Shown: in pieces, positions 6,276-41,668 of the stretch
Layout of the letters: each line of letters starts with the position of its first letter
Position numbering within the stretch: the stretch's first letter is position 1
Origin: Phycisphaerales bacterium
GTDB taxonomy: Bacteria > Planctomycetota > Phycisphaerae > Sedimentisphaerales > Anaerobacaceae
Length of the DNA: 41,669 nt
NCBI GenBank assembly: GCA_039679525.1
Contig: JBDKUU010000806.1
Span: forward strand, 1-41,669
Direction: 5' to 3'
Program-made: the position numbers and the translations under genes
The notes under the pieces: generated by a model
What the model saw: only the letters and a program-made list of their open reading frames with translations
The model's database searches: none
What the model was told of the DNA's origin: nothing

Positions 6276-6313
6276 GTTGCGTGGGAGTGTTGAAGCGTTG
6301 GAGCGTGGATGCG

Positions 6314-9163: not shown

Positions 9164-10071
9164 ACATCGACCACCGTGATTCCTCCGCACGCCGTTCGCT
9201 TGGACAGCCCGGAAATCGCCTGTCTCACCACGACGCCGGTGCTGCCGTCCCATGAGGCCGCCACATTCTCGGCATTTTGCCCCTCATTCACCTGCATGAT
9301 CGAAACGATGACCTCTCCGAGACGGTTATGATCGGACACTTCAATGGCCCGCTCCCCCAGCAACTCCCTCCATTTCGCGATGGCATTCTGCTGTCTCGTC
9401 GCCGAAGTCGGCGTGATGAGGTGGAACACGTTCCAGTCACACGAGACTTCATCCAGGAGATCCTCGATGGCAACATCCGCTTCAACTGTCCCAGCCATGA
9501 ACCTTTGGATTTCTTCGCGAGTCAGGACCGGCAAAGGGGATTCATCTCCCACCGTGAAGAGATACCCCATCCGATTTCTCTTGATGATCGCGTCACACTT
9601 CGTCTTGTGGGCGGCGAACCACCACAGGATCGGGTACGATTCCCCCCCATTTCCGCCGCCGTTCCCTTCGATGAAGAACTTCTCGATCTGTTGGGCGAGA
9701 CGGATGTCTGCCTCGAATTGCGTGGTCTGAATCGGCGCATCGTCGCATGTGGCATCTCCGATCGCGGCCAACAACACATGCGGGTCCGTCACCGGTTTTC
9801 GGTCGTAGATGCCTTGGATGATGATTCCCAGCGACTTCTTGATGATCGTCGTAGCGAGCATCCCCATCGAACCCGTCTCATCCACCCCAATAATAACCGG
9901 GGTGGATTGCGGATTGGCTGGCGAATCACACGATTCCCGCACGCCGAACTTCGCCGGGTTCAGGTCATCGTGACAACCCGAACGATTGGTGAAGATGTCC
10001 TCTTGCGACTTGCCTGCGATGGACTTCGAATAATCCGTGTACACACTGTCATTCCATGTTGCATTTCCCAT
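9160..10071 (-). CDS. von Willebrand factor A (vWA) domain protein
   Basis: MIDAS-like VIIGVDETGSMG followed by a Rossmann-like alternation pattern. Size is 303 aa. Confidence 0.6.
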   Translation of the reverse strand: MGNATWNDSVYTDYSKSIAGKSQEDIFTNRSGCHDDLNPAKFGVRESCDSPANPQSTPVIIGVDETGSMGMLATTIIKKSLGIIIQGIYDRKPVTDPHVLLAAIGDATCDDAPIQTTQFEADIRLAQQIEKFFIEGNGGGNGGESYPILWWFAAHKTKCDAIIKRNRMGYLFTVGDESPLPVLTREEIQRFMAGTVEADVAIEDLLDEVSCDWNVFHLITPTSATRQQNAIAKWRELLGERAIEVSDHNRLGEVIVSIMQVNEGQNAENVAASWDGSTGVVVRQAISGLSKRTACGGITVVDV

Positions 10072-16173: not shown

Positions 16174-16350
16174 CACCACAGAGACACAGAGAACACAGAG
16201 AATAGATGTGCGATGGTCCAGCTCGTTGCCCGGCTCGCCGCCCTGGCCGCACGTGCACGCATGCGGGATCAGGGGCCAGAACCCGTCGGCACAACAGGGG
16301 CGGTCGCGAACGGCCCTTTTCTTCTCTGTGCCCTCTGTGCCTCTGTGGTG
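16174..16350. repeat. 29-nt inverted pair of the CACAGAG family enclosing 119 nt
   Basis: CACCACAGAGACACAGAGAACACAGAGAA (16174-16202) matches the reverse complement of TTCTCTGTGCCCTCTGTGCCTCTGTGGTG (16322-16350) at 26 of 29 positions. Confidence 0.75.
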
Positions 16351-16793: not shown

Positions 16794-16863
16794 CGATCGA
16801 GATGTGATGCCTGAGCACTGTTATTACCGTGGGATAGCGGATTCGTACCATTGGATTCTACCA

Positions 16864-16910
16864 GGGGACTCATAATCCCTTGGTTCAAGGTTCGAATCCT
16901 TGTGGGCCCA
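16864..16910 (+). other. 3' fragment of tRNA-Met(CAU), anticodon arm to discriminator; attP/att core candidate
   Basis: GGGGA-CTCATAA-TCCCT, then TGGTT, then CAAGG-TTCGAAT-CCTTG, then TGGGCCC-A. No complementary 5' acceptor strand or proper D arm lies upstream. It sits 29 nt from the integrase gene. Confidence 0.6.
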
Positions 16911-16938: not shown

Positions 16939-17976
16939 TCACCATGAAACGGCGTTGAATGCCCGGCGGCCCTCGTCCAGGCATTTCCGCTGGTCTACCG
17001 CTGTGTAGACCTCTTTGGTCAGCCGATCAGTGGCGTGTCCGAGCAGCTCCTGGCAGAAGTGGCTCGGCACGCCCTGCTCGGCCAACTGCGTGGCCGCGTT
17101 CTTCCGCAACGTGTGGAACGTCCCCTCGGCGATCCGCTCAGCGCCCGCCGCAATCCGCAGGGCGTTCGCCGCCGCGAGGATCCGCCGCAGCTCCCTGTGA
17201 AAATTGTTGTACGGGTACTTTCTCTGTGTTTCGGACAGGCGCCCCACCTGCGACTGCTTGGCCCGACAGGTCCGCTCCTTCAGGAATGGATACCGCCACG
17301 GGGCCACCTGCCGCAGTCGCGACAGGACCGCCCAGAGATCGTCGCTCATCGGGACCTTGCGGTCTGACTTGCCCTTGGCCGTCCACCGCCAGAACTCCCC
17401 GAGCCGGTCCGGACGCGACTGGATCATAACGACCCCGGACTCGAGGTCGATATCGTCCCATCGCAGGTTCCAGACCTCGCCGATCCGAGGGCCTGTCAAG
17501 GCCATCAGGAAAAAGCCCGTCCACCGCAAGATCCCGGCCGCGTCCGGCCACGTCAGGGCCGCTACGCCATCGTCCGGATTGCCCCGCACGACGTCGAGCA
17601 TCGAGCCCAACTCCTCGTGCGTGTAGACGTGCACCTTCCGTCGCGTCGCCTTGACCCGGTGGCAGCGGGCCACCGGATTCGCCGCACAGATCCCGGCGTC
17701 GACGGACCAGGCGAAGACCTGGCCGACCGCCGCCGTATAGCTGAAGACGCTGTGCTCGCTGAAGCCCCGGCCGTAGCGGCTGGTCGCCTCATCCCGCATG
17801 TGACGCTGGTACGAGTCGATCTGCTCGGCCGTCACGGCGGCCGCCGGCGCCGAATCGCCCAGCAGCCGCCTCAGCAGCCGCCAGGCGGACCGGCACTTGG
17901 CGCGGGTCGTGCCCTGGGTCACGGAAGAACTCTCGAACTTGTCAAATAACTCAACGATCGTGCATCGCTCAGGCAT
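16939..17976 (-). CDS. int: Tyrosine integrase / site-specific recombinase
   Basis: LTGPRIGEV (Arg), HTLRKNAAT (HxxR), LLGHAT and KEVYTAV (catalytic Tyr). Size is 345 aa. Confidence 0.9.
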   Translation of the reverse strand: MPERCTIVELFDKFESSSVTQGTTRAKCRSAWRLLRRLLGDSAPAAAVTAEQIDSYQRHMRDEATSRYGRGFSEHSVFSYTAAVGQVFAWSVDAGICAANPVARCHRVKATRRKVHVYTHEELGSMLDVVRGNPDDGVAALTWPDAAGILRWTGFFLMALTGPRIGEVWNLRWDDIDLESGVVMIQSRPDRLGEFWRWTAKGKSDRKVPMSDDLWAVLSRLRQVAPWRYPFLKERTCRAKQSQVGRLSETQRKYPYNNFHRELRRILAAANALRIAAGAERIAEGTFHTLRKNAATQLAEQGVPSHFCQELLGHATDRLTKEVYTAVDQRKCLDEGRRAFNAVSW

Positions 17977-22113: not shown

Positions 22114-23733
22114 CTATGCACTCGCCGACGCTGAGGGGCTGGCGCTGACTGATTGGCTCGGCGTGCCTTCCGACGCGGACGCCGACGGACTGACGCTCGC
22201 CGATTGGCTCTGGCTCGTGGATGGGCTCGTGCTGAAGGACCCGCTCACCGGCTCGCCCGGCTCGACGGCGGGGCCCGGACCCGTCCCCTCCGTGATATAG
22301 CCGGCGACGAAGACGTCCTCGATGCACTCGATCACGCATTCCCCGCTCGTCAGGGATCCGCGGCTGATCTTCGTGACGCGGACCGCGAGGGCTGAGACCT
22401 TCAGGTCCGAGCAGGTGATCGTGATCGGGTCGCCAACTTTCAGGTGCGCCATGGTCCGCAGTGCCCGCAACACGAACGTGCGGGGCATCGCACTGACCGC
22501 CTGCTGCTCGCGGGCCGCGATCTCGACGGCCAGGTCCGGCAGGCAGATGAAATTCGAGTAGTCGATCTCCTGGACGACGGGCAGCCCCCCCTGCTTGGCG
22601 ATCATGGCCAGGTCCGGTCCGTAGGCGGGCCGCCGCTCCAGCGTCACCCGGTCCCAGTACCAGACCTTCGTGCGGGTTGGCAGCCGGCCGAGCGACGAGC
22701 AGGCCATGGACTCGACCCAGAAGTCACTCTCGTCGAACGATCCGACTGAAACATCCGATTCGCGGATCAGGGCAATCTCGAATTTGCCCGTCTCGGAATC
22801 GACGTAGAGCTTGCCCCGGATGATCTCCTCGATCTGCTCGACCATCTTCTCGATATCGTCGGCGTCCCAATCCCACACGCACGAAAGGCCGATCCCCTCC
22901 GTGTAGCACGTATCCGCGGCCGTCGTGAAGCTGTCCCCGATCAGGGCGGCGGACTTGCCCAGCCCGATCACGGAGCTGGTGAGCAGCTCGTACAGGATAT
23001 GGATCGCGTTCAGGTCCCCATCCGAGCCCACAGGGGCCTTCGCGATGTACCACATCGCCGTGCCGTCCGAAAGCTGGTTCACCCGCTTGCAGAGGAAGGA
23101 CCAGGGCTTCAGATACGCCTGGGTCCCGATGTACGTGAGCTTCAGGACGATGGATGTGAAGCCGCGGGAGGGCGGCTCCGTGGCGCCGAGCAGTGCGGAA
23201 AGATAGGAGTCGAGCGTCTGGGCCGATCCGCCGTAGAGGATGTGCAGGGCACCCCCGTAGTGGTAGATGCCTCCCTCTCGCTTGCCGCCCCCCCAGCACC
23301 ATTGGCATTCCGCCTGAAACTCGACGCTCGCCGCCGCGTCCCCCGCCATCTCCGTCGCATCGTTCAGCACGGGCCAGACGCAGGTGTCCGCCACCCAGAT
23401 CTGCTTGACCCCGTCGATATTGGCCTGGCAGATCCCCATCTGCAGTGAGATATAGTACAGCCAGGCCGCGTAGTCGCTGTGCGTCCAGTAGTAGCTGTTC
23501 AATTCCAGCAGCGGCGTGACCGCGTTGGGACTCTGGACCCGGCGAGTCCCGAAGACGACCGGATAGGGCCGGCCCTCCTCGGCCGTGGGCAGCTCGAAGG
23601 CATCCTTGCCCGCCGGTTTCGGCTTCGATGCCTTCTGGCGGAAGGCGTAGCTCACCGCGTAGGAGATGGCCACGGCGATGGCGATTTTGATCGCTGCAGA
23701 GATGATGAACGGGATGAATGCCCACGCCAACAT
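22114..23733 (-). CDS. Tail tip / host-specificity (gpJ/GTA g15-like N-terminal) protein with a Ser-rich C-terminal tag
   Basis: The ATG at 23733 shares one nt with the upstream stop (TGATG). [27 protein letters not shown]...EGRPYPVVFGTRRV... The protein is last in the tail module. The C-terminus is ...[25 protein letters not shown]. Confidence 0.6.
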   Translation of the reverse strand: MLAWAFIPFIISAAIKIAIAVAISYAVSYAFRQKASKPKPAGKDAFELPTAEEGRPYPVVFGTRRVQSPNAVTPLLELNSYYWTHSDYAAWLYYISLQMGICQANIDGVKQIWVADTCVWPVLNDATEMAGDAAASVEFQAECQWCWGGGKREGGIYHYGGALHILYGGSAQTLDSYLSALLGATEPPSRGFTSIVLKLTYIGTQAYLKPWSFLCKRVNQLSDGTAMWYIAKAPVGSDGDLNAIHILYELLTSSVIGLGKSAALIGDSFTTAADTCYTEGIGLSCVWDWDADDIEKMVEQIEEIIRGKLYVDSETGKFEIALIRESDVSVGSFDESDFWVESMACSSLGRLPTRTKVWYWDRVTLERRPAYGPDLAMIAKQGGLPVVQEIDYSNFICLPDLAVEIAAREQQAVSAMPRTFVLRALRTMAHLKVGDPITITCSDLKVSALAVRVTKISRGSLTSGECVIECIEDVFVAGYITEGTGPGPAVEPGEPVSGSFSTSPSTSQSQSASVSPSASASEGTPSQSVSASPSASASA

Positions 23734-26498
23734 CAGAGCACCCCCCACTGACTCCAGACGTCTTCGTCCGGGATATTTTTCTGGCCGCGGAAATTGGCCG
23801 AGTTCGCGAACTTCGAGGCACAGGTGGCCGCCAGGTGATCGCAGCCGGGCCAGATCGTGAAGGGCCGGCCTGTCACGTCCTCCGGCAGCGTCGGCCAGAT
23901 CGTCACCGTATCGCCGGACTGGGCGACGACCGTGCGGCGGTGACCTTTGACGAGGATGTCCCCGCCGAGCCACCAATCGGCGCCCTTGAGTCCGAAGGTC
24001 GCACTCGTCAGGACCCGGCCGGAAACCGATTCGATCGCCCCCTCGAAGGCATACTCGTCCCGGTCCACGCCGCACAGATCGCTGTAGAGGTCCACGCCGC
24101 ACAGACGGCTGTAGCAGTTCACCAGGCCGCTTCGGGCGGTCGCAGCGGAGGAAGGATCGATCGTGATCTCGGCGCAGCGGCCGTCCCCCTTGCGGGAGGT
24201 CTGCTTGAATGCGACTTGGATCACATCGCCCCGATAGATCGCACGGACCTGGTCCCCGTGCCCCCGATAGCGAACGTAGTGGACGATGGCCTCCGGCGGG
24301 TCCTGGAGCCAGCGGAGGGCCAGGGCGTTATTCCAGTTCACCTTGACGACGGTCTGATCCTTCAGGACCGTCGCCCCCTCCTGGATCTCCCCACCGAGGC
24401 AATAGCAGGCGGTGAACGTGTTGCCGCCGTAATCCACGTCGGCCGGTGCGTCCGCGTAGCGGTAATAGACCGCCGTCTCACCGATCTGGAACTCGTGCAG
24501 CTCGTACGGTTCCCCCGTATCGAGCGAGGCCTCGTACTCGTCATAGTCGGAGGACTCCGAAGGGGAGGCCGAAGGGGTTGCGGAGACCGAGGCGGAGAGG
24601 CTCGCGCTCGGCGAGCCGCTGAGGCTGGAGGATGGGGTCCCTTCACTGGCGGAAGCGGATGGTGATACACTGACCGATTGCGATGGACTTGCAGATGCGG
24701 TGCCCTCGCTCGACGAAGCGGAGGGTGAACCGCTCATACTGGCACTGGGCGAGGCCGAAAGACTACCGCTCGGTGAGCCGGATGCGGACGCAGAGGGACT
24801 GGCACTAATCGATTGTGATGGACTATGCGACAGGCTGGCACTCGGCGAGATGGAGACCGAGGCTGATGGAGTCGCGGATGCTGAGCCGCTCGGACTGGCG
24901 CTGACCGACTGGCTCGGCGTCCCCTCCGACGCCGACGCCGATGGGCTGGCGCTCGCCGACTGGCTCGGGCTCGTGGCTGGGGCTGACGCCGAGGGGCTGG
25001 CACTGGCCGATTGTGATGGGCTGTGCGAGAGGCTGGCACTCGGCGATACGGAGATCGAGGCTGATGGAGTCGCTGATGGCGAACCGCTCAGACTGGCGCT
25101 CATCGACTGGCTCGGCGTGCCCTCCGACGCGGACGCCGATGGGCTGGAGCTTTTCGAACCCGAGGGGCTTTGGCTGACCGACTGGCTCGGCGTGCCCTCC
25201 GAGGCGGATGCCGATGGGCTCGCACTTTTCGAACCCGAGGGGCTCTGACTGACCGACTGGCTCGGAGTCCCCTCCGACGCGGATGCTGATGGGCTCGCGC
25301 TTTTCGAACCCGATGGACTCTGGCTGACCGACTGGCTCGGCGTCCCTTCCGACGCCGAGGCCGATGGGCTGGCGCTGACCGAACCCGATGGACTCTGGCT
25401 GGCCGATTGGCTCGGCGTCCCTTCCGACGCCGAGGCCGATGGGGAGGCACTTTTCGAACCGCTCGGGCTGGCACTGATCGACTGGCTGGGACTGCTCGCC
25501 ACGCCGGAGGCGGAAGGCGATGCGGATTTCGAAGCGGACTTGCTCGCCGAAGGACTCGGACTCGGGGAAGAGGATATGTACTCGTCGTATCCCACGTCCC
25601 ACCCGGCGCCTGCAGGCCGGGCGTTGCCGTCCACATCTTCATCCGGGTCCATATCCGCCGATGCGTTGGTTCCGGCATCCTTCAAGGTTGACGAGTCCCC
25701 GATGTGCAGGTCCTCGCTGCCGGCCGTGACGTTCGTGAAGTAGGCCCCGCTGCTGGTCGAGAAGGCGGCCGTGGAAGTGGAAAGCGACCCATCCTCGCTG
25801 TAGCAGTTCGTCAGGGTCACCGCGCCGGCGTCCGCGTGCTTGGCGTAGTCCGCCGTCCCAGTGCCGCCGGCATAGCAGTTCTTGGCCGTCAGGGTCGAAT
25901 AGGCCCCAACGTAGATGCCGTAGACCGACTGATTCGCGAAACTGCAATTCAGGACGACCGTGCCGGTTTTTGAATTGGCGACGTTGACACCACGGGTTCC
26001 ACCAAAACAACCACAGTTCTGAATGAGCCAGTTGTTCCCGCCGACACTGATGCAGTAGGCGCCCGGCTGGCGGATCAGGCATCGCGTGACTCGAATCGAA
26101 GCATTGCTACTGACGATTCCGTTGCCGTCCGTCACATGGGCATAGACCTGCAAGCCCTCCAGGCGGGTGTAGGCCGGCATGGCGTTCAGGGTCGTCGCGT
26201 AGGCCGTGGTCCGGCCGATCCGGTACTTGCTCGTAGACCAGACGCCCGCGTGATTGTCCGCCGACACGATCCGCAGATAGTTCGAGGCCGAGGCATTGGT
26301 CCAGCCGCTGAAATCCACTGCGGTCGTGTCCGCCGTCGCTCCGCGGCAATAAACCGTGTGCTGCTTGCCGCCGTCCGCCGAGAGATCGCCGTCTTCCGCC
26401 GCACTCCAGGCCGATAGCGTCTTGTAGGCGGTCGCCCAGGAGGTCCCGTCTCCGCCCACCGCGATATCCGTATCGACATATCTGACGACTTCCGCCAT
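23733..26498 (-). CDS. Chimeric tail hub/fibre: beta-helix domain, ~340-aa Ser/Ala/Pro linker, then a DUF2163/BR0599 (GTA g13-like) domain
   Basis: The N-terminus has periodic xNC rungs ([10 protein letters not shown]...VLNCSFAN...AKNCYAGG...LTNCYSEDG). The middle carries [25 protein letters not shown] repeats. The C-terminus has [27 protein letters not shown]. Confidence 0.7.
24552..25574. repeat. Coding tandem repeats with triplet-periodic (AGC/GCC/CCG) units of about 66-75 bp
   Basis: Multiple near-identical copies encode [17 protein letters not shown]. Confidence 0.85.
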
Positions 26499-31851: not shown

Positions 31852-32352
31852 TTACGCGCTCGCGCTGGAACTCGGGCTGGCGCTGGCGCTCGTGCTGGTG
31901 CTGATCGAACTGGACTCCGTGCCGCCGCCCTCGTGCGCGAAGCTCTTCTTGCCCAGCGTCTTGAACGTCACCGTCGCCATCTTCGCGTCCCGCGGCGTCC
32001 CGAAGCCCGGCCAGGAGAGCGTCAGGATCATCGCCTGCACCGTGATCGAGCTGGTCGTCCCGGCGCGGTTCTTGTACGTCACAACCAGATTGCCCCGCAC
32101 CTTCGCCCGCCACTTGTTGTGCAGGGCGTGGTAATTGGCGTTCTGGGCCCCATTGTAGATGAACTGGAACGATGGGGAGCCCTCATTGAACGCCCCTTCG
32201 AGGAAGTCGGCCGTCTCGTCGGCGCTGTCGCAGGTCAGGATGTCCTGGCCGTCCAGCTCCGAAGACACCTCGGGGAATCCGAGGACCTCCCCGATCGTGA
32301 CGCCGTCGAACACGAACGTCGTGCCGAACCCTTTACTCGCTGCCGTAGTCAT
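31852..32352 (-). CDS. Major tail (tube) protein, TP901-1/GTA g9-like, with a Ser-rich C-terminal extension
   Basis: The motif FGTTFVFDGVTIGEVLGFPEVSSELDGQDILTCDS and its position support the call. The tail is EGGGTESSSISTSTSASASPSSSASA. Confidence 0.75.
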   Translation of the reverse strand: MTTAASKGFGTTFVFDGVTIGEVLGFPEVSSELDGQDILTCDSADETADFLEGAFNEGSPSFQFIYNGAQNANYHALHNKWRAKVRGNLVVTYKNRAGTTSSITVQAMILTLSWPGFGTPRDAKMATVTFKTLGKKSFAHEGGGTESSSISTSTSASASPSSSASA

Positions 32353-33567: not shown

Positions 33568-33597
33568 TCTCTGTGTCCTCTGTGTCTCCGTGGTGAA
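33568..33597. repeat. Mini-repeat of the CTCTGTG family, abutting the start codon
   Basis: TCTCTGTGTCCTCTGTGTCTCCGTGGTGAA. Confidence 0.75.
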
Positions 33598-33601
33598 TCG
33601 A

Positions 33602-34003
33602 TCACGCCGAACTGCTCGCTGAAGGCGAGGCCGATACACTCGTGCTGGCCGATGGGCTCGGGCTCGAAGCCGGGCCGGCCGCCAGGACCTCCGTGCAGAG
33701 CATCCGCGTCTCGACGTTCAATTCATCCACGTTCCGAACGTCCTTGATATCGAAGGTCCTCGTACCCCAGACGATCCGGTGACCCGGCTGCACGTCCACC
33801 CCGTGGCGGATCGTGATCTCGTGCGTCAGGACGGTCGACGCCTGCTGGGCCGCGATCCGCTCGTTGCCGCTGAGCGTTCGGAACCTGGACCAGACGGAGA
33901 CGTACGTGGACCAGGTCTGCGTCGCGTGACCGCTCGCCGAGCGGGTCTCCACGTACGATTGCAGCGAGATCAGATTCCGCAGTTCGCCGGCCCTCAGTCT
34001 CAT
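33602..34003 (-). CDS. Head closure / head-tail adaptor (Phage_H_T_join, SPP1 gp16-like) with a Ser-rich C-terminal tag
   Basis: The ATG at 34003 is in an ATGA overlap. LRNLISLQ...WSTYVSVWSRFRTLSGNE...THEITIRH...FDIKDVRNVDE. The tail is [26 protein letters not shown]. Confidence 0.7.
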   Translation of the reverse strand: MRLRAGELRNLISLQSYVETRSASGHATQTWSTYVSVWSRFRTLSGNERIAAQQASTVLTHEITIRHGVDVQPGHRIVWGTRTFDIKDVRNVDELNVETRMLCTEVLAAGPASSPSPSASTSVSASPSASSSA

Positions 34004-34641
34004 ACGCCCCCCATCCTGTCCAGCCCGAGCAGGGTCTTGGCACCATATGGGATCTCCGCCAGACTCAGATCGGTCACTACCTCGCGGTTCGCATACCAAT
34101 GGGCCACGATCAGCAAGATCGCCGTGCGGATATACCCCGGCACATCGTCCTCGTCGCTGCCGTACCCGGCGGTGTAGGTAACGATGATGCCGTTGATATC
34201 GCCCCGGATCGACGGCCAGTCGCAATCGTAGGCCGGGACGATCCGGCCAGGCTGCTTGTCCACGTCCACGTCGTACTGGTCCGCCGCCAGTGTCTGGAGC
34301 ACGCCGGATTCGTCGATGTACTGAATGCTCGTCACGGCGATCAGCGGGCACCAGCGGGGCCGGATTGCGGAAGGCCAGGAATCGAAGTAGTCCACGCAGG
34401 TCTGCGTGAGGTACTTGCGGCCCTGGTAGACCTGTGCCCATTCTGTGGCGGCGTCGATATAGGAATCGATCAGGGCATCCTCATTCGTGTTCGTCACCCG
34501 CAGGCGCAACTTCGCCTCGGCCAGGGTGACCACCTGCTCGGCGTCGCGTTCCACACTGGGGGAGGCGGACTCTGTCGCCGACGCGGAGCTGGAGGTGCTG
34601 CTGCTGATCGACTGGCTCGGACTGCTCGATGGCGTTCCCAT
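34000..34641 (-). CDS. gp6-like head-tail connector (QLRG/phiE125 gp8-type) with a Ser-rich N-terminal tag
   Basis: The N-terminus is [29 protein letters not shown]. This is followed by TLAEAKLRLRVTNTNEDALIDSYIDAATEWAQ. Confidence 0.7.
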   Translation of the reverse strand: MGTPSSSPSQSISSSTSSSASATESASPSVERDAEQVVTLAEAKLRLRVTNTNEDALIDSYIDAATEWAQVYQGRKYLTQTCVDYFDSWPSAIRPRWCPLIAVTSIQYIDESGVLQTLAADQYDVDVDKQPGRIVPAYDCDWPSIRGDINGIIVTYTAGYGSDEDDVPGYIRTAILLIVAHWYANREVVTDLSLAEIPYGAKTLLGLDRMGGV

Positions 34642-34642
34642 A

Positions 34643-34924
34643 TCAGATCCCCGTCAATACCTTCAAGATCCATCCGCCCAACAAAGAGCCCCCCGTCGTC
34701 ACAACCAGAAACACCGCCGCCACGCCGGCCAGGAACCAGCGGGACTCCAGCAGCTTGCGGCCGTGGGGACAGGTAGCCTGATGATTTTCAATCATCATCT
34801 GAACCGCCTGACGCTGGGATTCAGCCATCTTCTCCAGTGCCTCGGATTGCGATTCCGCAAACCGCTCTCCGATTTCGAAGGCCAGCAGCTTGATCGTGTC
34901 CCGGTCCTGTTCCGTCAGCGCCAT
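34643..34924 (-). CDS. Small C-terminally membrane-anchored protein
   Basis: A 93-aa ORF with a helical N-terminus and the TM segment WFLAGVAAVFLVVTTGGSLLGGWIL. Confidence 0.45.
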   Translation of the reverse strand: MALTEQDRDTIKLLAFEIGERFAESQSEALEKMAESQRQAVQMMIENHQATCPHGRKLLESRWFLAGVAAVFLVVTTGGSLLGGWILKVLTGI

Positions 34925-35614
34925 CTATCCCGCCTTTCCACCGATGAAATACGTCGTCATCACGTCCTCGACCGTTCCCCAAGGGTCCAGCCGTTTGACC
35001 AGTCGGCCGCTGTGCCGCTTGCACGGGGCGTAGTTGCCCCCGTGATTGACCAGGTCCAGGATGCCGGGGCCCGGAGCCGCGAGCATCTCGTATTCGATCT
35101 TCGCAATGCCGAGCGTCTCAGAGCCCTTGCCCGGCTCAAACGCATCGTGAAAATCCTCGTCGAAAAAGCAGCGAACGAGCTTGGCGACCGCGTCCATCAG
35201 CAGGACCGCCCGCTCGGCGATCACAAGCTGCATGGACCGGCCGCCCCGGTCCACGGAGAACCGGCGGCAATCCATCAGGGCCCGATGGCGATTCTGATCG
35301 AAGACGACCTCCCCTTTCACCGGACGCAGAAAGAAATGCTCCGGTGGGTAGAGGACATCGTGCTCGCACAACGCGACGAACTCGGTCTCGCACGCCAGGC
35401 ACCCGGCGGCGATCTGGCGGAGGATGGAGCGATAGGACCGGCCGATGTCCCCGAGGCAGACGTTGTGCCCGAAGTCGATCGGCCGCTGCGAGATACTGAC
35501 GATCGGAATCCCCCCGGCCTTCCCGGCACTCGCGATGAGATGGGCCCTCACTGCCGCAGCGAACCGGCTCGGAAGACTGTTGTCCGTATAATAGAGGATC
35601 GTCAGATCGGTCAT
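34925..35614 (-). CDS. Putative GT-A-like glycosyltransferase (weak call)
   Basis: ILYYTDNSL...VALCEHDVLYPPEHF pattern. It lies adjacent to the large GT ORF with a 4-nt overlap. Confidence 0.35.
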   Translation of the reverse strand: MTDLTILYYTDNSLPSRFAAAVRAHLIASAGKAGGIPIVSISQRPIDFGHNVCLGDIGRSYRSILRQIAAGCLACETEFVALCEHDVLYPPEHFFLRPVKGEVVFDQNRHRALMDCRRFSVDRGGRSMQLVIAERAVLLMDAVAKLVRCFFDEDFHDAFEPGKGSETLGIAKIEYEMLAAPGPGILDLVNHGGNYAPCKRHSGRLVKRLDPWGTVEDVMTTYFIGGKAG

Positions 35615-38600
35615 GGGGCCCTCTGGATGAAGACGATGTTGTGGTACCAGTGGATCTCGCGAACGTCGCGAGGGGCATAGATCCTGTTTTCCAATCCAAT
35701 GTGGAGACAGCGAAATTCGTCATCCTCCAGTTCATTGTCCTCCACCTCGGGATCATCTTGATCGAACGATCGGTGGATGTCCTCGATCACGTACCAGCCG
35801 AAGGGCCGAACGCTCGGCCAGAGCCAGTCGAACAACCGCCGCTGGTCCTCGGGCGCGTGCGAGGCGTCGTCCACGATCAGATCGTAGGGCCCCGCGGCGA
35901 TGAGCTTCTGGACGTCGTCGAGCCTCGTCTCGTCCCCGACGATGACCTGGGTATTCGGCAGGTCACCCGCGAACTTCTTCCACCGATCCGGATCGCAGTC
36001 GAAGCCGATGACATGTGTCCGCTCGGGGAAATATGCTCGCCAGATGGCCAGGGAGGAACCGTGCGCCAGGCCGCACTCCAGGACCCGTCGGGCACGCTTG
36101 CGGATCGCGGACAGGTGCCTGTCGTAGTGCACGTGGTAGTTATGGACCCAGTGCTTGTCCGTCGCGTTCCCGCGGTGTACGACGTACTGCTGCTCCATCA
36201 ACTTCTGGATCGGGCCCGCCTCGGGCGGCGCCATCCGGTGCAGATGGTATTGTGGTGAGAGGATCATCGCACTGCGTGCATCGCCGAGCAGCCGGCCGAT
36301 GGCCCGCTTGCCCTGAATAGTCCCCAGACGCTGGAGGATCACGAGTCGGCGATACCCCTTCCACAGGATCAACCGGCCCTCGTGCTCGTAGAATTCCAGC
36401 GGGCTCTTGAGACCGTTGTCGCGGATGTCGAGGACGAGCCGTGCGGCCTTTTGCATCTTGCCCTTCACGGTCCGCAGCTCCTGCCGCGTCGGGATCCGAA
36501 CGCTGCCCCGGCGGATGTGACTGATGAGGTACTCGCGATAGCGACCCTCATAGTCCGGCTTGCCGGCCAGGACGGAATCGACGAACTCGCCGAACGCCGG
36601 CCAGAAGATGTCCAGCCGGAAGGACTTCGCCGGTTCGCTGATCCGGTGCCGGCCCACCCAAAGATCCTCCACACTCACGCGGACCGCCTTGCAGGCGTTG
36701 TGATGGTGAGGGGCCTGGATCGCGGGGCCGTAGTCGGCCGCAGGCCACCCCGGCGGATGAAACCGCTCCAGCAGCCAGGCGAAACTGTATTTCTGGAACC
36801 GCCATTTGTCCCCGAGCCAGAGGTCGTGACTATGCTCGATGCTCCTGGGCTTGACCGTCGCGCCCATCGCGTAGGGGGCCTTGCCCCGGTTCCAATGGGC
36901 GTACCAGGTCCGCTTATTCTCCAGGAGGCGACCGCCCGAGAGCCATACTTTACAGGCGAGTTCCGCCCCTTCCTGGCCGAAATGGCCGTGGCCCTCGTCC
37001 CAGCCGCCCCAATAGGTCCACAGGTCCCGCTCGATCAGGAAGCAGCTGCCCGAGCAGGTCATCGTCTCGGAGACCTCTTCGTCCTTGTGGGCCTCGGCCC
37101 ATTCGGGCCAGGCCATCGAGCGAAGGCCGATCCCATCCTCCGTGACGTGCGTCAGACGCCGGCAGTCGGTCTTACTGTGTTCCCGCCGCTGCCAGGAGAC
37201 CGTATCCAGATCGTACCGGCTGCCCACGACGGCGCCGCCCGGTTCCCATGCCCGGATCAATTCGGCATCCATGTCATCCGCGACGGCGCAGTGGGCGTCG
37301 AGCTTTAAGATGAATTGGCCCTTGGCTTCCTTCAGCAGGCGATTCAGCGTGGGACGCATGCCTAACTTCGGACCGGGCAAGACGCGAACTCGCTCGTCAT
37401 CGAATCGCGGGACCGGCTGATCCTCACCATCGAGGCCAATGAGGATCTCGAAGTCATTATACAGATGGGCCAAGAGGTCTTTGACTGTAGCCTCTAGGAA
37501 CTGCTCATTGCGGGCCGGGATCAGAACGGAGATCGTCGGAGCCTCGGGGACAAGGGGGGCGAGTTTCTTGAGGCCAGTCTTGACGGCCTCCACTTGCCGC
37601 TCTGCACGCTCTATGCCTTCTTCAAATGCCTTCTGTTCTGCAGATAGAAAGGACCCCATTGACCTCGTTGACCTTGTTAACCTTTTCGACTTGACCGCTG
37701 GAGCCTGGATTACCCGCCTGGCCTTTGCATCGACCCTGTCGATATCGTTTTCCGTCATCCTTGGCTCATTCTTTCTCTGTGTCCTCTGTGGCTCTGTGGT
37801 GATTTTCCTCTTTGGCCAGGTGGGGACCGGTGCGAATCTGTCGGCGATCCACTCGAGCGGCCGTGTCTGCAGCGGCCAGCGACCACCGGTCCATAGATCG
37901 ATCGAGTACTGGCGTGCCTTCTCCTGGTCGCTGCCGTGGATCTTGTACGGGAAGCTCTCCCCGTCCCCGCAGCGAAACAGGTGTGCAAACCACGTATTGC
38001 GGTTCACCACATGCCGGCCGCCGGAGAGCCACGCCTTGCACGCCATTTCCACACCCATCTGACCCCAGGACCCATGCCCTTCGTCCAGCCCTCCAAGCTC
38101 CCAGAATCGATCCCAGTGCATGAACCAGCAGGCGCCCTGGCCCGTCATTACGTCCGCGATCTCGCCCTGCCGCTTGGCCCAGGCCTTGAATTGGCGATAC
38201 TCGTCTTCGTATTCGCGACCACCCCTGCGGAAGTCCCTTGCCCCACACTGCCCGCAGTTTGCATCCCCGGCGTCCGGATCCTTCGCCGCTCCACACTGAT
38301 TGCAGATGTGCGTTCCCTGACCCCAGTACTGGACCCGCAGGGGCCGCTCCTTCGCCTCGGGAGACCGGAAGAACATCCAATCCGTTTTTCGCTTCCAGTT
38401 CGGCTCAAAGACGATGTCGTACTCGTAGTCCGTGACGCCGCATGTCGGGCACGGCCGGTGACTCCCGCGATTATAGAACCGGCCCTTGCACTTGCGGCAG
38501 ATGAGGTCGTGGGCGTGCAGATTGTACATCGTCGGGATGACGGTCCAGTCGTACTCGCAGTCCCGCATGAGCTTGACGTCGAAGCCGTCCTCCAGCATCG

Positions 38601-38856
38601 AGTGGCCGTCCGTCTTCAAGATAAACTTCGCCGTCGAGAGCCGGGCGGCCTCATTGACGCTCTGCCGCTGACCCATCGGCTCGGCGTGGCGGATCACGCG
38701 AACACCCGGTAGATCGGGCACGACCGGCCCGGACTCCTGGCCGTCGATCACGACGATGATCTCCGTCTCACCGCGAATGGCGTTGTGGATCGATTCCACC
38801 GTGTGGGCCAGGTACGCCTCCGCCCTGGCCGGGATGATGACGCTAACATCGGGCAT
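35611..38856 (-). CDS. Multidomain glycosyltransferase-glycosyltransferase-methyltransferase (2 x DxH GT-A plus a class-I SAM MTase)
   Basis: GT-A 1 (aa 1-345): VSVIIPARAE, KTDGHS, WGQMGVEMACKAWLSGG..WFAH, with CxxC x4 inserts. GT-A 2 (aa 441-705): ISVLIPARNE, KLDAHC, FGQEGAELACKVWLSGG..WYAH. MTase (aa ~890-1081): VLECGLAHGSS, GFDCDP, DLIVDDASH, GWYVIED. Confidence 0.75.
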   Translation of the reverse strand: MPDVSVIIPARAEAYLAHTVESIHNAIRGETEIIVVIDGQESGPVVPDLPGVRVIRHAEPMGQRQSVNEAARLSTAKFILKTDGHSMLEDGFDVKLMRDCEYDWTVIPTMYNLHAHDLICRKCKGRFYNRGSHRPCPTCGVTDYEYDIVFEPNWKRKTDWMFFRSPEAKERPLRVQYWGQGTHICNQCGAAKDPDAGDANCGQCGARDFRRGGREYEDEYRQFKAWAKRQGEIADVMTGQGACWFMHWDRFWELGGLDEGHGSWGQMGVEMACKAWLSGGRHVVNRNTWFAHLFRCGDGESFPYKIHGSDQEKARQYSIDLWTGGRWPLQTRPLEWIADRFAPVPTWPKRKITTEPQRTQRKNEPRMTENDIDRVDAKARRVIQAPAVKSKRLTRSTRSMGSFLSAEQKAFEEGIERAERQVEAVKTGLKKLAPLVPEAPTISVLIPARNEQFLEATVKDLLAHLYNDFEILIGLDGEDQPVPRFDDERVRVLPGPKLGMRPTLNRLLKEAKGQFILKLDAHCAVADDMDAELIRAWEPGGAVVGSRYDLDTVSWQRREHSKTDCRRLTHVTEDGIGLRSMAWPEWAEAHKDEEVSETMTCSGSCFLIERDLWTYWGGWDEGHGHFGQEGAELACKVWLSGGRLLENKRTWYAHWNRGKAPYAMGATVKPRSIEHSHDLWLGDKWRFQKYSFAWLLERFHPPGWPAADYGPAIQAPHHHNACKAVRVSVEDLWVGRHRISEPAKSFRLDIFWPAFGEFVDSVLAGKPDYEGRYREYLISHIRRGSVRIPTRQELRTVKGKMQKAARLVLDIRDNGLKSPLEFYEHEGRLILWKGYRRLVILQRLGTIQGKRAIGRLLGDARSAMILSPQYHLHRMAPPEAGPIQKLMEQQYVVHRGNATDKHWVHNYHVHYDRHLSAIRKRARRVLECGLAHGSSLAIWRAYFPERTHVIGFDCDPDRWKKFAGDLPNTQVIVGDETRLDDVQKLIAAGPYDLIVDDASHAPEDQRRLFDWLWPSVRPFGWYVIEDIHRSFDQDDPEVEDNELEDDEFRCLHIGLENRIYAPRDVREIHWYHNIVFIQRAP
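37658..37802. repeat. Intergenic-type repeat module (TTGACC family plus CTCTGTG family) embedded in frame in the 1081-aa ORF
   Basis: ATTGACCTCGTTGACCTTGTTAACCTTTTCGACTTGACC (37658-37696) and TCTCTGTGTCCTCTGTGGCTCTGTGGTGA (37774-37802). Confidence 0.8.
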
Positions 38857-39055
38857 GGATTTGCACTTTCATCTCGTTGATCCGGAGTGCTGCCATATGG
38901 CAGCAATGCTCCAAGTATTCCGTTCTCGCGACATCCACGTCAGGATATGCGTTGGGTAACAGCGATTCGATCTCATCGAGGTACCGTTTCACGATTCGAA
39001 GGTAATCGGCGAGGTCCTCTTTTGTCTCTGTAACGTAACTTGCCACATCGGGCAT
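38843..39055 (-). CDS. Small hypothetical protein in a lower-GC patch
   Basis: A 70-aa amphipathic ORF overlapping the GT start by 14 nt. It contains the 16-bp palindrome GCTGCCATATGGCAGC (38889-38904). Confidence 0.4.
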   Translation of the reverse strand: MPDVASYVTETKEDLADYLRIVKRYLDEIESLLPNAYPDVDVARTEYLEHCCHMAALRINEMKVQIHARC

Positions 39056-39174
39056 AACAACCCTTTCGATCCATCTGGTTGACCGGCCGGGCTACGTCCC
39101 AGGCCGGCGTCAACGGAGGCCGGCAGTGATACCCCATCGCCGCCAGCAGATCCGACATGTTCATCCGCCGCCCC

Positions 39175-39645
39175 TTACGCCGAGGCGCTCGCGCTCGGGG
39201 ACGCCGATACGCTCGAACTGGCGGAGGCGGAAATGCTCGACGATGGACTCTCGGATCTCGATTCAGCCTCGGTCCAGCCCTCTACGATCACACTGACCTT
39301 CCCGGCCCCGCTCGCGTCCATACACAGGGAATTGTTCTCGTTCAGCCGCATGGGGGTCTCGCCGAAGTCGATAGGGCAGAAGGTCCCCGCCGCCCCGCCG
39401 AGCGAACCGATCAAGGTCCGCAACAATGCACCGGAGTCCTTGCCTTCCCCGATCGTCACGGTGACCGCCGCAGTGATGGAGATCCACAATCGCTCGACGT
39501 GCAGGGCGAAGCCCACTCCCGGAGACGGCACGATCACCTCGCACCCGCTTGCGTCGTCGCTGGCCACGTTGAACCGCCACGCCGTCTTTCTCTGGGGGTC
39601 CGTGCTCCGCACGGCCTGCGCGATGGGAATGATTTCAACGGACAT
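39175..39645 (-). CDS. Beta-rich virion-associated protein (decoration-like?) with a Ser-rich C-terminal tag
   Basis: A 156-aa ORF with tail [29 protein letters not shown]. Confidence 0.45.
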   Translation of the reverse strand: MSVEIIPIAQAVRSTDPQRKTAWRFNVASDDASGCEVIVPSPGVGFALHVERLWISITAAVTVTIGEGKDSGALLRTLIGSLGGAAGTFCPIDFGETPMRLNENNSLCMDASGAGKVSVIVEGWTEAESRSESPSSSISASASSSVSASPSASASA

Positions 39646-39887
39646 CAGTCACCGTCCTTTTCGCCGGTCTGCGGGGTCACGACGGCCCGTTCGGCGACCG
39701 GATTCACAACCGCCGTCTCGGCGGCCGGGCCCCGGCTGAATGGTTTCTTCTTCCGCTCGGGCTCCTTGTACTCCACCCCGTAGCCCTTGCGGATCATGCT
39801 CTCGACGCACGGGGCGTCCTCTTCAACGATCTCACCCGGCTGGTGACCGTCCCACAGCCGCGTCAACCGAATCTTCTTCTTTTCCAT
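39645..39887 (-). CDS. Small hypothetical protein
   Basis: An 80-aa ORF abutting the next gene's start (39645). Confidence 0.4.
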   Translation of the reverse strand: MEKKKIRLTRLWDGHQPGEIVEEDAPCVESMIRKGYGVEYKEPERKKKPFSRGPAAETAVVNPVAERAVVTPQTGEKDGD

Positions 39888-39899
39888 GCTCGAACCCTT

Positions 39900-41444
39900 T
39901 CACTTCCAGCACTTGGCCGGTTTGCCCTTGTCGTGAAACTCGCCCGGCGACTGATAGACCGGCTGCATGTCCTCGCCCGGCCAGGCCGCCATCAGCTCCA
40001 GGTGACCGATCACAATGCGATTGGCCAGGAGCACCTTCTTCCGTACCTTCTCCAGTTGCCTCCAGAACCAGATATCGTCGTCGATCCGGCCGGGACCCCA
40101 CTGGTTGTCGATGTTCGGCTGGCCCCAGAACCAGGGATGCGGCACGTCGAGCATGTCGGACACACGGAGCAGCGTCAGGCCGAAGTGGCCCGTAGCCACG
40201 GGGATCGTCTCGGCCTTCAATTCCGCCTGCGGGACGTCCGACCTCGGCTGGCCGGACCGGGTCTTGAGGCTCGTCAGGATCTTGTGCGCAACCCGACCCG
40301 TCTGAATGGGCACGACCGCCGCCGCCTCCGGATGCTGACACATCAGGCGAATCAGACCCTCGACGTCGGCTCGCGTGAACAGCGTGTCATAGTCCACCGT
40401 CAGCACATAATCCGCCCCGGAGTCGATCATCGATTGAATGCCCCGCTCCAGGCACTGACCCCAGAAGGCACCCTGCACATTGATGAGCGGAATTCGCATG
40501 GGCCAAAGCACCTGCTGGGCACAGGTCATATTGTCCTGGAATCCCAGCCGCGGGACACTCATCACTGCGGCGATCCGAAGGCCCTGGGGCGGCTTGAGCG
40601 ACGCGACCTCCGGCGGCCGGCAGGCGGGCTCCCTCGCCGGGTCCTTCGTCCCCGAGGCGAAGCCGCGGCATTCGGAAAGCCCCTTCGGCGATTCCGTCAG
40701 CGGCCAGGCGTCCACGTCCACGAAACCAACCGCTTGCAGCATCGATCCGAGACATTGCAGCGTCGGGGCCCACCAGTTGGAGGGGTTGTTCCCGTACTCC
40801 GCGCCGGGATAGAACTCCATCACCATCTCGTTGTCCGCGAAGCCCTTGCCCAGTCCACCGCGATAGGGACTGTACACGTCGAGGGACGCGGTCTCGACAT
40901 AGATCGAGCCGTCGCACACCGCCGCGATCCGCTCCAGGGCCAGCAGAGGATGTCGCAGGTGGTAGATCGTGCCGAAGAAAAAGACGACATCAAATCTCCC
41001 ATACAACGTCGCGTAAATGTCGTAGACCGATGCCTCTTTGCGGAGGACCGCCTGGTTGGCATTATTCAGCCATCGGTTCTTGATGCCCCCGTCCGTCTGC
41101 GTGAATCCCAAGGCCTCACGGCACAGGTCAAACGTCGCCCACTTGCTCTTGCGATCGATTGCCAGGCCGGCCTCATCGCTGAAATCGTCTATCGCGACGA
41201 CCTCGCGGGCCCCCCGCTTCAGGGCCTCCCAGGTCCAGTAGCCGTCCCATGCCCCGATATCGAGCACCCGTTTGCCCCTTAGATCGGCCGGGATCGAGTA
41301 CCGCTCGGCGCACAGGGGCGAGAAACCCGGCGTCACGATCCCGCCGGGCAGCTCGATCTTGTGATACCAGAAGGGAATCGCATCGACTTTCGCTTGTAGC
41401 TCTTGCACATCCATCGTTCGTTCTCCGTTCATCCCTGCATCCAT
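39900..41444 (-). CDS. SAM-methyltransferase / GT-A-like glycosyltransferase fusion
   Basis: N-terminus: IPFWYHKIELPGGIVTPG, VLDIGAWDGYW and FFFGTIYHLRHP (CmoB/TIGR04290-like MTase). C-terminus: VDYDTLF, HFGLTLLR and DDDIWFWRQL...VIGHL (GT-A-like). Start may be 41444 or 41414. Confidence 0.65.
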   Translation of the reverse strand: MDAGMNGERTMDVQELQAKVDAIPFWYHKIELPGGIVTPGFSPLCAERYSIPADLRGKRVLDIGAWDGYWTWEALKRGAREVVAIDDFSDEAGLAIDRKSKWATFDLCREALGFTQTDGGIKNRWLNNANQAVLRKEASVYDIYATLYGRFDVVFFFGTIYHLRHPLLALERIAAVCDGSIYVETASLDVYSPYRGGLGKGFADNEMVMEFYPGAEYGNNPSNWWAPTLQCLGSMLQAVGFVDVDAWPLTESPKGLSECRGFASGTKDPAREPACRPPEVASLKPPQGLRIAAVMSVPRLGFQDNMTCAQQVLWPMRIPLINVQGAFWGQCLERGIQSMIDSGADYVLTVDYDTLFTRADVEGLIRLMCQHPEAAAVVPIQTGRVAHKILTSLKTRSGQPRSDVPQAELKAETIPVATGHFGLTLLRVSDMLDVPHPWFWGQPNIDNQWGPGRIDDDIWFWRQLEKVRKKVLLANRIVIGHLELMAAWPGEDMQPVYQSPGEFHDKGKPAKCWK

Positions 41445-41446: not shown

Positions 41447-41475
41447 TCTCTGTGTTCTCTGTGGCTCTCTGTGGC
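41447..41475. repeat. Mini-repeat of the CTCTGTG family
   Basis: TCTCTGTGTTCTCTGTGGCTCTCTGTGGC, 2 nt upstream of the ATG at 41444. Confidence 0.7.
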
Positions 41476-41548: not shown

Positions 41549-41668
41549 TCATCCACTGACGATCAATCGGGCCCCGGCGACCGTCGTGGCCGCCGTTTCC
41601 ATGGCCGGGTCGACATTGCTCTTGAACAGCAGGGCATGAGCCGAGACGCCCACGGTCTGTTTCTCCGG
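41549..41668 (-). CDS. C-terminal end of an upstream structural protein (capsid?); runs off the right edge
   Basis: Own translation: ...PEKQTVGVSAHALLFKSNVDPAMETAATTVAGARLIVSG*. The identity is inferred from gene order only. Confidence 0.3.
   Translation of the reverse strand, partial: PEKQTVGVSAHALLFKSNVDPAMETAATTVAGARLIVSG

Follow-up and report, generated by a model that had tools for sequence, protein, structure and literature searches.

A glycosyltransferase–methyltransferase island and Ser-x tags on virion proteins suggest phage-encoded protein O-glycosylation in an uncultured phage

The glycosylation of virion proteins by phage-encoded glycosyltransferases (GTs) has been established for the mycobacteriophages Che8, Corndog and Myrna (Freeman et al. 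2023, Cell Host Microbe, as cited in PMC12363180 and PMC12619734), and by the account of these citing papers it has been shown for mycobacteriophages only. In Corndog the genes for an O-methyltransferase and three GTs are flanked by those for portal and protease, and the enzymes were not found in the virions (PMC4351075). A comparable case is the chlorovirus PBCV-1, whose A064R protein, a GT-GT-methyltransferase, works in the cytoplasm to assemble and O-methylate the glycan on the virus's own capsid protein (PMC7826918). Gram-positive bacteria have serine-rich-repeat (SRR) adhesins with long Ser-x repeats, which receive their O-glycans in the cytoplasm from dedicated enzymes, GtfA and GtfB, whose genes adjoin that of the substrate (PMC6973325). 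Here we describe a related arrangement on a contig assigned to a Phycisphaerales bacterium (JBDKUU010000806.1, assembly GCA_039679525.1). The window, i.e. the entire contig of 41,669 bp with ~62% GC and a uniform base composition, carries an island of GT and methyltransferase genes in the structural operon of an uncultured phage, and several of the virion proteins encoded around it bear tracts in which every second residue is serine (Ser-x tags). The island is probably a phage-encoded, cytoplasmic O-glycosylation system for the Ser-x tags on the phage's own virion proteins. If so, it would extend phage virion glycosylation to a different enzyme family and a different acceptor tag. The enzymes of the island are encoded by three open reading frames (ORFs), of 1081, 229 and 514 amino acids (aa), the last two referred to as p229 and p514:

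37822..38856, minus strand: GT domain 1 of the 1081-aa ORF (aa 1-345), GT-A fold, DxH motif D83/H85 and block WGQMGVEMACKAWLSGG...WFAH; recognised by Pfam GT2 and by paralogy to domain 2
36727..37551, minus strand: GT domain 2 of the 1081-aa ORF (aa 436-710), GT-A fold, DxH motif D520/H522 and block FGQEGAELACKVWLSGG...WYAH (H654); its closest solved relatives are GT27 enzymes
36190..36726, minus strand: middle domain of the 1081-aa ORF (aa 711-889) with the motifs GLKSPLEF and LWKGYRRLVIL, conserved in the homolog alignment
35614..36189, minus strand: C-terminal domain of the 1081-aa ORF (aa 890-1081), a MycE/TylE-like, S-adenosylmethionine (SAM)- and metal-dependent sugar O-methyltransferase by PDB profile matches
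34925..35614, minus strand: p229, a stand-alone GT-A protein with E83-x-D85, identified by AF2 and Foldseek; its first 4 nt are shared with the end of the 1081-aa ORF
39900..41444, minus strand: p514, a fusion of a class-I methyltransferase (N-terminal half) and a GT-A domain with a DYD motif (C-terminal half), identified by Pfam, NCBIfam, PDB and AF2

The locus resembles those of the mycobacteriophages in that the GTs, and in Corndog an O-methyltransferase as well, are encoded among virion structural genes. In the mycobacteriophages the glycans sit on extensions at the ends of virion subunits, the tail tube among them, and the predicted acceptor tags of the window include such extensions. In contrast, the GT domains of the mycobacteriophages have no detectable sequence similarity to those of the 1081-aa ORF; the putative acceptors here are regular Ser-x dipeptide repeats of up to hundreds of residues that are found at N-termini and internally as well; the capsid subunit is untagged in relatives of the window phage; and the hosts, Actinobacteria in the case of the mycobacteriophages, are here probably Planctomycetota and many other phyla. 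A tblastn search of 50,697 GenBank phage genomes (E<=1e-5), with the 1081-aa protein as the sole query, returned methyltransferase genes only and no match to the GT domains. Mycobacteriophage Omega has GT (gp16), methyltransferase (gp17, which shares 36% identity with the C-terminal domain of the 1081-aa ORF) and GT (gp23) genes in the same slot, in the order capsid, GT, methyltransferase ... GT, head-tail connector. However, these are separate genes with GTs unrelated in sequence, the Omega locus contains no Ser-x runs, and glycosylation of the Omega virion is not in evidence here. A064R is an architectural analogue with the same multidomain order of GT, GT and methyltransferase, although its product is an N-linked glycan on a eukaryotic-virus capsid protein, its GTs are rhamnosyltransferases and it has no repeat-tag acceptors. 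The SRR adhesins share the repeat; their enzymes are unrelated to those of the window and their substrates are exported adhesins rather than virion proteins. Comparable Ser-x repeat acceptors are also known from the staphylococcal SD-repeat proteins with SdgA/SdgB, and the initiating enzymes of both the SRR and the SD systems adopt the GT-B fold (GT4). The only GT domains found in the window are GT-A, and Pfam scans detected no SecA2/SecY2-like genes of the SRR-associated accessory Sec (aSec) type. Searches of the literature covered here with the tag sequences, and for phages in combination with mucin-like or GalNAc-transferase terms, retrieved no prior description of such a system.

A first-pass annotation of the window, made from the sequence alone, had proposed at least three or four GT-A and two SAM-methyltransferase domains for the island, and the count now stands at four and two, respectively. 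Profile and structure searches returned GT-A and methyltransferase folds for all of them, by sequence profiles in the case of the 1081-aa ORF and by AF2 and Foldseek in the case of p229 and p514. The 1081-aa ORF (35611-38856(-)) is organised as GT-A, GT-A, linker domain and methyltransferase. Its two GT-A domains are in tandem, as had been suspected: Pfam matches Glycos_transf_2 (PF00535) in two stretches (E value 5e-28, above the gathering score), and domains 1 and 2 are paralogs (28% identical, 3e-36). The annotation had also assigned a DxH metal motif to each domain, together with a block reminiscent of the Gal/GalNAc-T motif of polypeptide GalNAc-transferases. Both DxH motifs (D83/H85 and D520/H522) and the histidine that follows the WLSGG block (H292 and H654) are invariant in 20 homologs. 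A single-protein search of the PDB with the 1081-aa protein already matches polypeptide GalNAc-transferases (6s22, 4e-6), and when the 20 homologs are combined into a profile, ~260 residues of GT domain 2 align with GalNAc-T4, T3, T9, T1, T10, T12 and T2 (1e-11 to 6e-8). In the profile alignment DaHC falls on DCHC and 'fGQEGaElaCkvWLSGGrl..yaH' on 'WGGENlElSFRVWqCGGkl..GH' of the GalNAc-transferases, the 'GQEGxELACKVWLSGG' block on 'WGGENLELSFRVWQCGG', and the following histidine on the third metal ligand; DxH, Gal/GalNAc-T motif and downstream histidine are all aligned in this way to both GalNAc-T4 and 6s22. All of these positions are invariant throughout the family, in domain 1 as well as in domain 2. 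The resemblance spotted by eye is therefore real at the profile level.

Like the GT27 enzymes of known structure (5nqa, 6s22, 2d7i, 1xhb), which act on Ser/Thr of disordered mucin-like repeats, the viral enzyme thus combines a GT-A fold and DxH with the Gal/GalNAc-T block and the third histidine. Unlike them it is cytoplasmic and viral rather than Golgi-resident, is of low sequence similarity, is duplicated in tandem and has a zinc-ribbon insert in domain 1. Neither Pfam nor PDB searches matched a ricin-type lectin domain in the 1081-aa ORF, where GT domain 2 is followed instead by an unrelated domain and the methyltransferase, and no hydrophobic segment that could act as a membrane (signal) anchor was found in it (maximum 19-residue hydropathy 0.96). 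Without lectin domain and anchor, and with low similarity to GT27 enzymes, the protein was not filed in GT27. The insert of GT domain 1 comprises ~80 aa (aa ~117-205; 38250-38510(-)) with two CxxC...CxxC zinc-ribbon-like motifs and has no equivalent in GT domain 2. It is partly or wholly missing in the most divergent members of the family, and accounts for the Joint Genome Institute (JGI) label 'ribosomal protein L40E' of one homolog.

That the 1081-aa ORF ends in a class-I methyltransferase of the sugar-O-methylation type, another proposal of the annotation, is borne out by profile matches to MycE (3ssm, 2e-33), TylE (8ia9, 1e-27) and, more weakly, CmcI (7e-8), which extend to the C-terminus, and by a Pfam Methyltransf_24 match on aa 926-1027. 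D996/D997, H1000, E1025 and D1026 are invariant in 20 homologs; these DDxSH and ED positions correspond to what we take to be the metal ligands and the catalytic His/base of MycE. MycE and TylE methylate the hydroxyls of macrolide sugars. The catalytic domain of the viral protein aligns with theirs end to end, but it is fused to two GTs, its presumed substrate is a protein-linked glycan, and the region N-terminal to it, where MycE has an auxiliary (oligomerisation) domain, seems to differ: the PDB match begins at MycE residue ~198, and the preceding aa 711-889, the middle domain, belong to no detected family and have no Pfam match. One homolog (P0073) carries a precomputed ParBc match.

The 229-aa protein has no match in Pfam, PHROGs, NCBIfam, or phmmer and profile searches of the PDB, and its fold was resolved only by structure prediction. 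The AF2 model built from 25 homologs has a mean predicted local distance difference test score (pLDDT) of 91.8 and a predicted template modelling score (pTM) of 0.90. Foldseek aligns it with SpsA, TarP, WrtF, AvpGT and GlcAT in the PDB (3e-6 to 1e-4, probability 1.0, template modelling score (TM) 0.41-0.54) and with viral GT-A proteins in BFVD (top match 7e-12, TM 0.67), and E83-x-D85, which follows a beta strand, is invariant in the 25 homologs. On the strength of this model p229 can be predicted with confidence to be a GT-A glycosyltransferase. The 514-aa ORF had been described as a methyltransferase fused to a GT-A-like domain, and both halves check out. The N-terminal half is a class-I methyltransferase by Pfam (Methyltransf_9/23), NCBIfam (TIGR04290, 5.5e-24) and PDB matches; in the AF2 model (pLDDT 86.5) Foldseek relates it to CmoB (7e-12) and the sugar O-methyltransferase EvdMO1 (4e-10), and the C-terminal half to the collagen galactosyltransferase COLGALT1 (3e-9) and the viral GT-A protein STIV A197. 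By sequence the C-terminal half reaches PF00535 only below threshold (0.009-0.017), while D341-Y-D343 is invariant in 30 homologs and the fusion is conserved in at least 1513. The gene caller places the start at M11, which is probably the true one and shortens the protein to 504 aa. JGI names the protein CmoB, a tRNA-modifying enzyme; this identity was rejected as the match does not go beyond the fold and a GT-A domain is fused to the methyltransferase. None of the island enzymes has a hydrophobic segment, the only one among the island proteins being that of the small protein p93, and hence the enzymes are taken to be cytoplasmic.

The Ser-x tags were located by a six-frame scan of stop-to-stop ORFs with a regular expression for alternating serine followed by a heterogeneity filter. 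Greedy longest-ORF calling was set aside: at 62% GC antisense ORFs displaced true genes, and one of the four previously noted terminal tags was recovered. A criterion based on composition only was likewise set aside, as it picked up spurious Arg-containing frames in GT-free loci. Six tagged proteins are encoded in the window:

39175..39645, minus strand: 156-aa protein (p156), candidate head-surface protein encoded near the capsid gene, C-terminal tag 39178-39249; predicted acceptor
34000..34641, minus strand: gp6-like head-tail connector (Pfam Phage_connect_1, PHROG head-tail adaptor), N-terminal tag 34552-34638; predicted acceptor
33602..34006, minus strand: head closure/completion protein (Pfam Phage_HCP, PHROG Hc1), C-terminal tag 33605-33679; predicted acceptor
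31852..32352, minus strand: candidate for the major tail (tube) protein by its position upstream of chaperone and tape measure, C-terminal tag 31855-31929; predicted acceptor
23733..26498, minus strand: 921-aa tail protein with beta-helix and BR0599 domain (Pfam), ~340-aa internal Ser-x tract 24549-25577; predicted heavily glycosylated stalk
22114..24102, minus strand: tail protein of 662 aa from its first start, from the six-frame scan, C-terminal tag 22117-22203

Of the acceptor sites of the mycobacteriophage type, the C-termini of capsid and tail tube, that of the tail-tube candidate bears a tag; the capsid gene lies outside the window, and the capsids of the relatives L001 and L129 are untagged at their ends.

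How closely enzymes and tags are coupled can be judged from a comparison of many viral loci. The GalNAc-T-like GT family, seen so far only in viral contigs and contigs of metagenome-assembled genomes (MAGs), comprises 607 protein clusters and occurs on at least 264 IMG/VR contigs. Among 185,579 reference genomes it is present on only 30 contigs, all of them from MAGs, the closest labelled Planctomycetota and the others many phyla. From this family 99 non-redundant GT-carrying loci were assembled, each extending up to ±10 kb around the GT, with GT identities of 35-100% and MAG labels from many phyla; a Ser-x run was counted if it was heterogeneous and at least 14 residues long. Such runs are present in 70/99 loci, and in 57/66 of those of at least 14 kb, adding up to 24,194 residues; all 414 runs lie on the strand of the GT, at a median distance of 2.6 kb. 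A p229 homolog is encoded in 81 of the 99 loci, mostly just downstream of the GT. GT-free relatives, recruited by the capsid, terminase or portal of a relative, have Ser-x runs in 0/24 cases (306 kb); searches with the terminase or portal as single proteins gave few relatives. The Fisher test for 70/99 versus 0/24 gives p = 4e-11, a value that overstates the evidence since the loci are not independent. A further 78 GT-free viral loci, drawn from IMG/VR by a TC-period-6 DNA pattern, (TCNNNN)x10, and used as a biased negative control only, contain runs in two cases (40 residues in 675 kb). The pattern scan itself mostly retrieved unrelated period-6 repeats and simple SV, SN, SG and SK repeats; four pattern loci pass the heterogeneity filter, two with and two without the GT, and the two with the GT hold 416 residues.

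The tagged proteins are virion proteins wherever a function can be assigned. Tagged ORFs fall into 140 clusters at 80% identity, 116 of which were scanned and matched 34 PHROG and 12 Pfam families; among the 25 PHROG families shown, all with a functional label are virion families (head closure, head-tail adaptor, tail, minor tail, virion structural), and Pfam adds tail tube, Dit and the carbohydrate-binding or lectin-like domains typical of fibres. Serine is encoded in the tracts by TCN (65%) and AGY (35%) codons, a mixture that points to selection for serine in the protein rather than slippage of a DNA repeat. In at least six further GT-carrying loci TPSS-type Ser/Thr tracts occur in place of Ser-x, namely (TPSS)n or SSTPS-type Ser/Thr/Pro repeats in L023, L068, L072, L087, L089 and L098, which suggests that the acceptor tags vary by enzyme subfamily. 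The MycE-like methyltransferase domain is present in 17/99 and p514 in 5/99 GT-carrying loci. The conserved core consists, we infer, of the GalNAc-T-like GT, the small GT-A protein and the Ser-x tracts, and glycan methylation looks like a lineage-specific extra. The annotation's proposal that the glycans are methylated fits the kinship to sugar O-methyltransferases and would hold for particular lineages.

The same coupling is seen among orthologs of individual tagged proteins. The head-closure protein is tagged in 6/6 loci with and 0/5 loci without the GT, p156 in 6/6 versus 0/4 and the connector in 5/9 versus 0/7; the tail-tube protein is tagged in 5/5 loci, every one of them GT-carrying. Two mosaic relatives, L129 and L130, are particularly informative. 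Their terminases are 93% and 90% identical to that of L001, a GT-carrying relative of the window, and they keep p514, the 84-aa gene and p156 but are devoid of the large GT, p229 and all Ser-x tags. Their p156 proteins are nearest to that of the window in core sequence (48-50%) and yet untagged, as is the connector of L129. The comparison of these two relatives indicates that the tags follow the GalNAc-T-like GT and p229, and neither p514 nor overall relatedness. It also splits the enzyme island as first conceived: the 1081-aa GT and p229 are tracked by the tags, whereas p514, present in untagged L129 and L130, is not linked to them. The methyltransferase-GT regions of the two relatives are L129:7346-10999 and L130:12733-14991, the former with an additional 447-aa methyltransferase-GT fusion. 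Since L129 carries two such fusions without tags, the p514 module must have an acceptor other than, or beyond, the Ser-x tag.

These data bear on two explanations that accept the tags and the enzymes but relate them differently. The co-occurrence could be lineage inertia, with the tracts serving as entropic bristles or spacers that carry no glycan and are by chance frequent in GT-bearing groups of phages. The loci are indeed related by descent, the counts are made without phylogenetic correction and the GT-free controls are limited; nevertheless such inertia is very unlikely, given that GT identities span 35-100%, that tags are found on at least 34 PHROG families in contigs binned to many phyla, and that GT-less mosaic relatives with a terminase 93% and a p93 92% identical have the closest p156 orthologs in untagged form. 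Alternatively, a host enzyme might add the first sugar to the Ser-x tracts, with the phage GT-A domains only elaborating it or using other sites on the virion. The four GT-A domains could act in more than one order, and the untagged methyltransferase-GT fusions of L129 and L130 imply that some island GTs have other acceptors. Host initiation is still unlikely: in the loci examined tags never occur without the GalNAc-T-like GT despite widely differing hosts, and the closest solved relatives of this GT are initiating protein O-glycosyltransferases.

The position of the island speaks to the remaining alternatives. Nearly all genes of the window are on the minus strand. Read from right to left they comprise a partial ORF, the 514-aa, 84-aa, 156-aa, 70-aa, 1081-aa, 229-aa and 93-aa ORFs, followed by the gp6-like connector, head closure, two neck/tail-completion proteins, the tail-tube candidate, chaperone, tape measure and tail-tip genes; integrase, tRNA and non-structural genes lie further to the left. 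The smaller ORFs not listed above are:

41552..41668, minus strand: ORF truncated by the contig end, of which the C-terminal 39 aa remain; they match the C-terminal end of the L129 182-aa protein
39645..39899, minus strand: small conserved ORF of 80-84 aa without Pfam match; homologs lie between the 514-aa and 156-aa genes in L002, L004, L009, L129 and L130
38843..39055, minus strand: 70-aa ORF without Pfam match, overlapping the start of the 1081-aa ORF by 14 nt
34643..34924, minus strand: 93-aa protein (p93) with one C-terminal transmembrane helix (maximum hydropathy 2.08)

The GT and methyltransferase genes are embedded in the virion structural operon. Island genes abut or overlap their neighbours, structural genes included, and no promoter- or terminator-like site was found on the coding strand from 31 kb to the contig end; together with the uniform base composition this gives the island the appearance of a regular component of the late operon. 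The annotation had put it at the junction of capsid and connector. The capsid gene itself is outside the window, as the contig stops 225 bp upstream of the 514-aa ORF, but the placement is right by synteny. In L001 (large GT 72% identical) the terminase, portal, protease and capsid genes are followed, in this order, by two small genes, GT-GT-methyltransferase, the 228-aa and 93-aa genes and the connector; in L002, L004, L009 and L129 the capsid gene is ~0.6 kb upstream of the 514-aa homolog; and the partial ORF of the window matches the C-terminus of the 182-aa ORF of L129 (6705-7253), which directly follows the capsid gene (5304-6680). Although p93 adjoins the island and is 92-93% identical in L004, L113 and L129, the last of which has a flanking connector and head closure only ~40% identical, it is present in 3/99 GT-carrying loci and is probably not part of the glycosylation core.

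GT2-type enzymes often build envelope polysaccharides, and the island GTs could alter host envelope glycans (O-antigen, capsule or S-layer glycan), with receptor masking or lysogenic conversion as the outcome and the Ser-x tracts as unrelated flexible linkers. The phage is temperate by its integrase (16939-17976), the small membrane protein p93 is adjacent, and there are weak NCBIfam matches to PgaC, TuaG and HpnB. Against this, the genes lie within the late structural operon and not by the integrase/immunity region, the enzymes are without membrane segment, Pfam scans revealed no flippase or GtrA-like partner, and the link between GT and virion-protein tags, consistent in strand and visible among orthologs, would be left unexplained, so that we rate a role in the envelope as quite unlikely. 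The NCBIfam scores are far under the family cut-offs, and an identity as envelope polysaccharide synthase was accordingly rejected. Modification of the phage DNA or of a small molecule instead of protein is highly improbable. Phage GTs that hypermodify DNA are well known (cited in PMC12619734), and a connection to nucleotide metabolism is hinted at by an adenylosuccinate-synthetase-like gene of the window. However, the island genes are in the structural operon and far from replication genes, their closest structures are protein O-glycosyltransferases and sugar O-methyltransferases, and modification of DNA would again leave the tag coupling unexplained. As there is no similarity to T4-type DNA glucosyltransferases, that identity was rejected as well.

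Glycosylation of tagged virion proteins by the phage's own enzymes, the central proposal of the first-pass annotation, is thus favoured by the strand-consistent co-occurrence of GT and tags and by the untagged state of GT-free orthologs. From the folds, the catalytic motifs, the cytoplasmic character of the enzymes, their place in the operon and the co-occurrence with tags, all shown above, we infer how the system might operate, including the tag serines as acceptors, the order of the enzymes, the identity of the sugars and the benefit in terms of shielding, stability or adhesion. At its core would be the soluble GalNAc-T-related GT-A enzyme, duplicated in tandem in the 1081-aa protein, with p229 as its partner. 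During late expression the GalNAc-T-like domains, with a metal bound by DxH...H, would transfer the first sugar from a nucleotide sugar of the host (no gene for nucleotide-sugar synthesis was revealed by Pfam scans of the window) to serines in the disordered dipeptide-repeat tracts (e.g. SPSASVSAS), which are appended to or inserted into p156, connector, head closure, tail tube and two tail-tip proteins in the window. The glycan would then be lengthened by p229 with other GT-A domains and, in the lineage of the window, O-methylated on a sugar hydroxyl by the fused MycE/TylE-like domain. The 514-aa fusion would be a separate accessory module, the acceptor of which may not be the Ser-x tag, or not that alone. 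The outcome would be a particle whose head, neck, tail tube and tail tip bear mucin-like brushes of glycan. Candidate benefits are shielding from proteases or antibodies, as in the mycobacteriophages, a colloidally more stable particle, and adhesion to glycans of the host or the environment.

Several points weigh against this proposal. The support is genomic, from an uncultured phage, and no glycan has been demonstrated. The loci behind the GT/tag association are phylogenetically non-independent, and the GT-free controls are either few (24 relatives) or picked by a biased DNA pattern (78 loci). In 29/99 GT-carrying loci there is no Ser-x run, many of these loci being short and some having TPSS tracts, and the capsids of the relatives L001 and L129 end without a tag. 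GT-A enzymes of the GT2 type are promiscuous, so that similarity to GT27 fixes neither acceptor nor donor, and the GalNAc-T-like protein has no lectin domain. Lastly, the presence of p514 in tag-free relatives implies another target for part of the island.

Additional elements of the window may be recorded here. A 28-nt element, CACCACRGAGNCACAGAGRNCACAGAGA, occurs in 14 copies at <=3 mismatches (0 expected) between 11149 and 41474, including 33568-33595(-), 37774-37801(-), 41447-41474(-), 16174-16201(+) and 16323-16350(-). Copies often sit immediately upstream of a start codon, several are paired in opposite orientation, and the element matches no Rfam family at gathering score. The linker that joins the two GT domains in the 1081-aa ORF contains one copy, which encodes TTEPQRTQRK and is followed by an in-frame ATG; this suggests a former intergenic region and hence a gene fusion, or else an internal site of initiation or regulation. 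A tRNA gene (16839-16910(+), Rfam, 32.8 bits) is situated 29 bp from the tyrosine integrase (16939-17976(-)), an arrangement typical of an attachment site. The adenylosuccinate-synthetase-like gene (8015-9253(-), Pfam PF00709, 1e-39) has related genes in 233 phage genomes, and the NCBIfam PurA and PurZ models both score far under their cut-offs.

Beyond the window, it is in our view an evenly balanced question whether soluble, phage-borne relatives of GalNAc-T generally initiate mucin-type O-glycosylation on portable Ser-x tags, which phages of many bacterial and possibly archaeal phyla would graft onto head, neck, tail-tube and fibre proteins, such that glycan-brush virions would be a common and hitherto overlooked trait of environmental phages. 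If true, virion glycosylation would reach hundreds of uncultured phage lineages across phyla by means of a different enzyme family and a simple, recognisable tag, and the combination of a GalNAc-T-like GT, a small GT-A protein and Ser-x tracts would be a sequence marker that predicts glycosylated virions in metagenomes. A soluble enzyme with a short, genetically encoded tag is also attractive for glyco-engineering in bacteria, where the system would, if the proposal is true, be a self-contained cytoplasmic cassette. The glycans could affect the stability, adsorption and aggregation of particles and their recognition by host or animal immune systems, and the kinship of the viral enzymes to those of eukaryotic mucin-type O-glycosylation raises an evolutionary question of its own.

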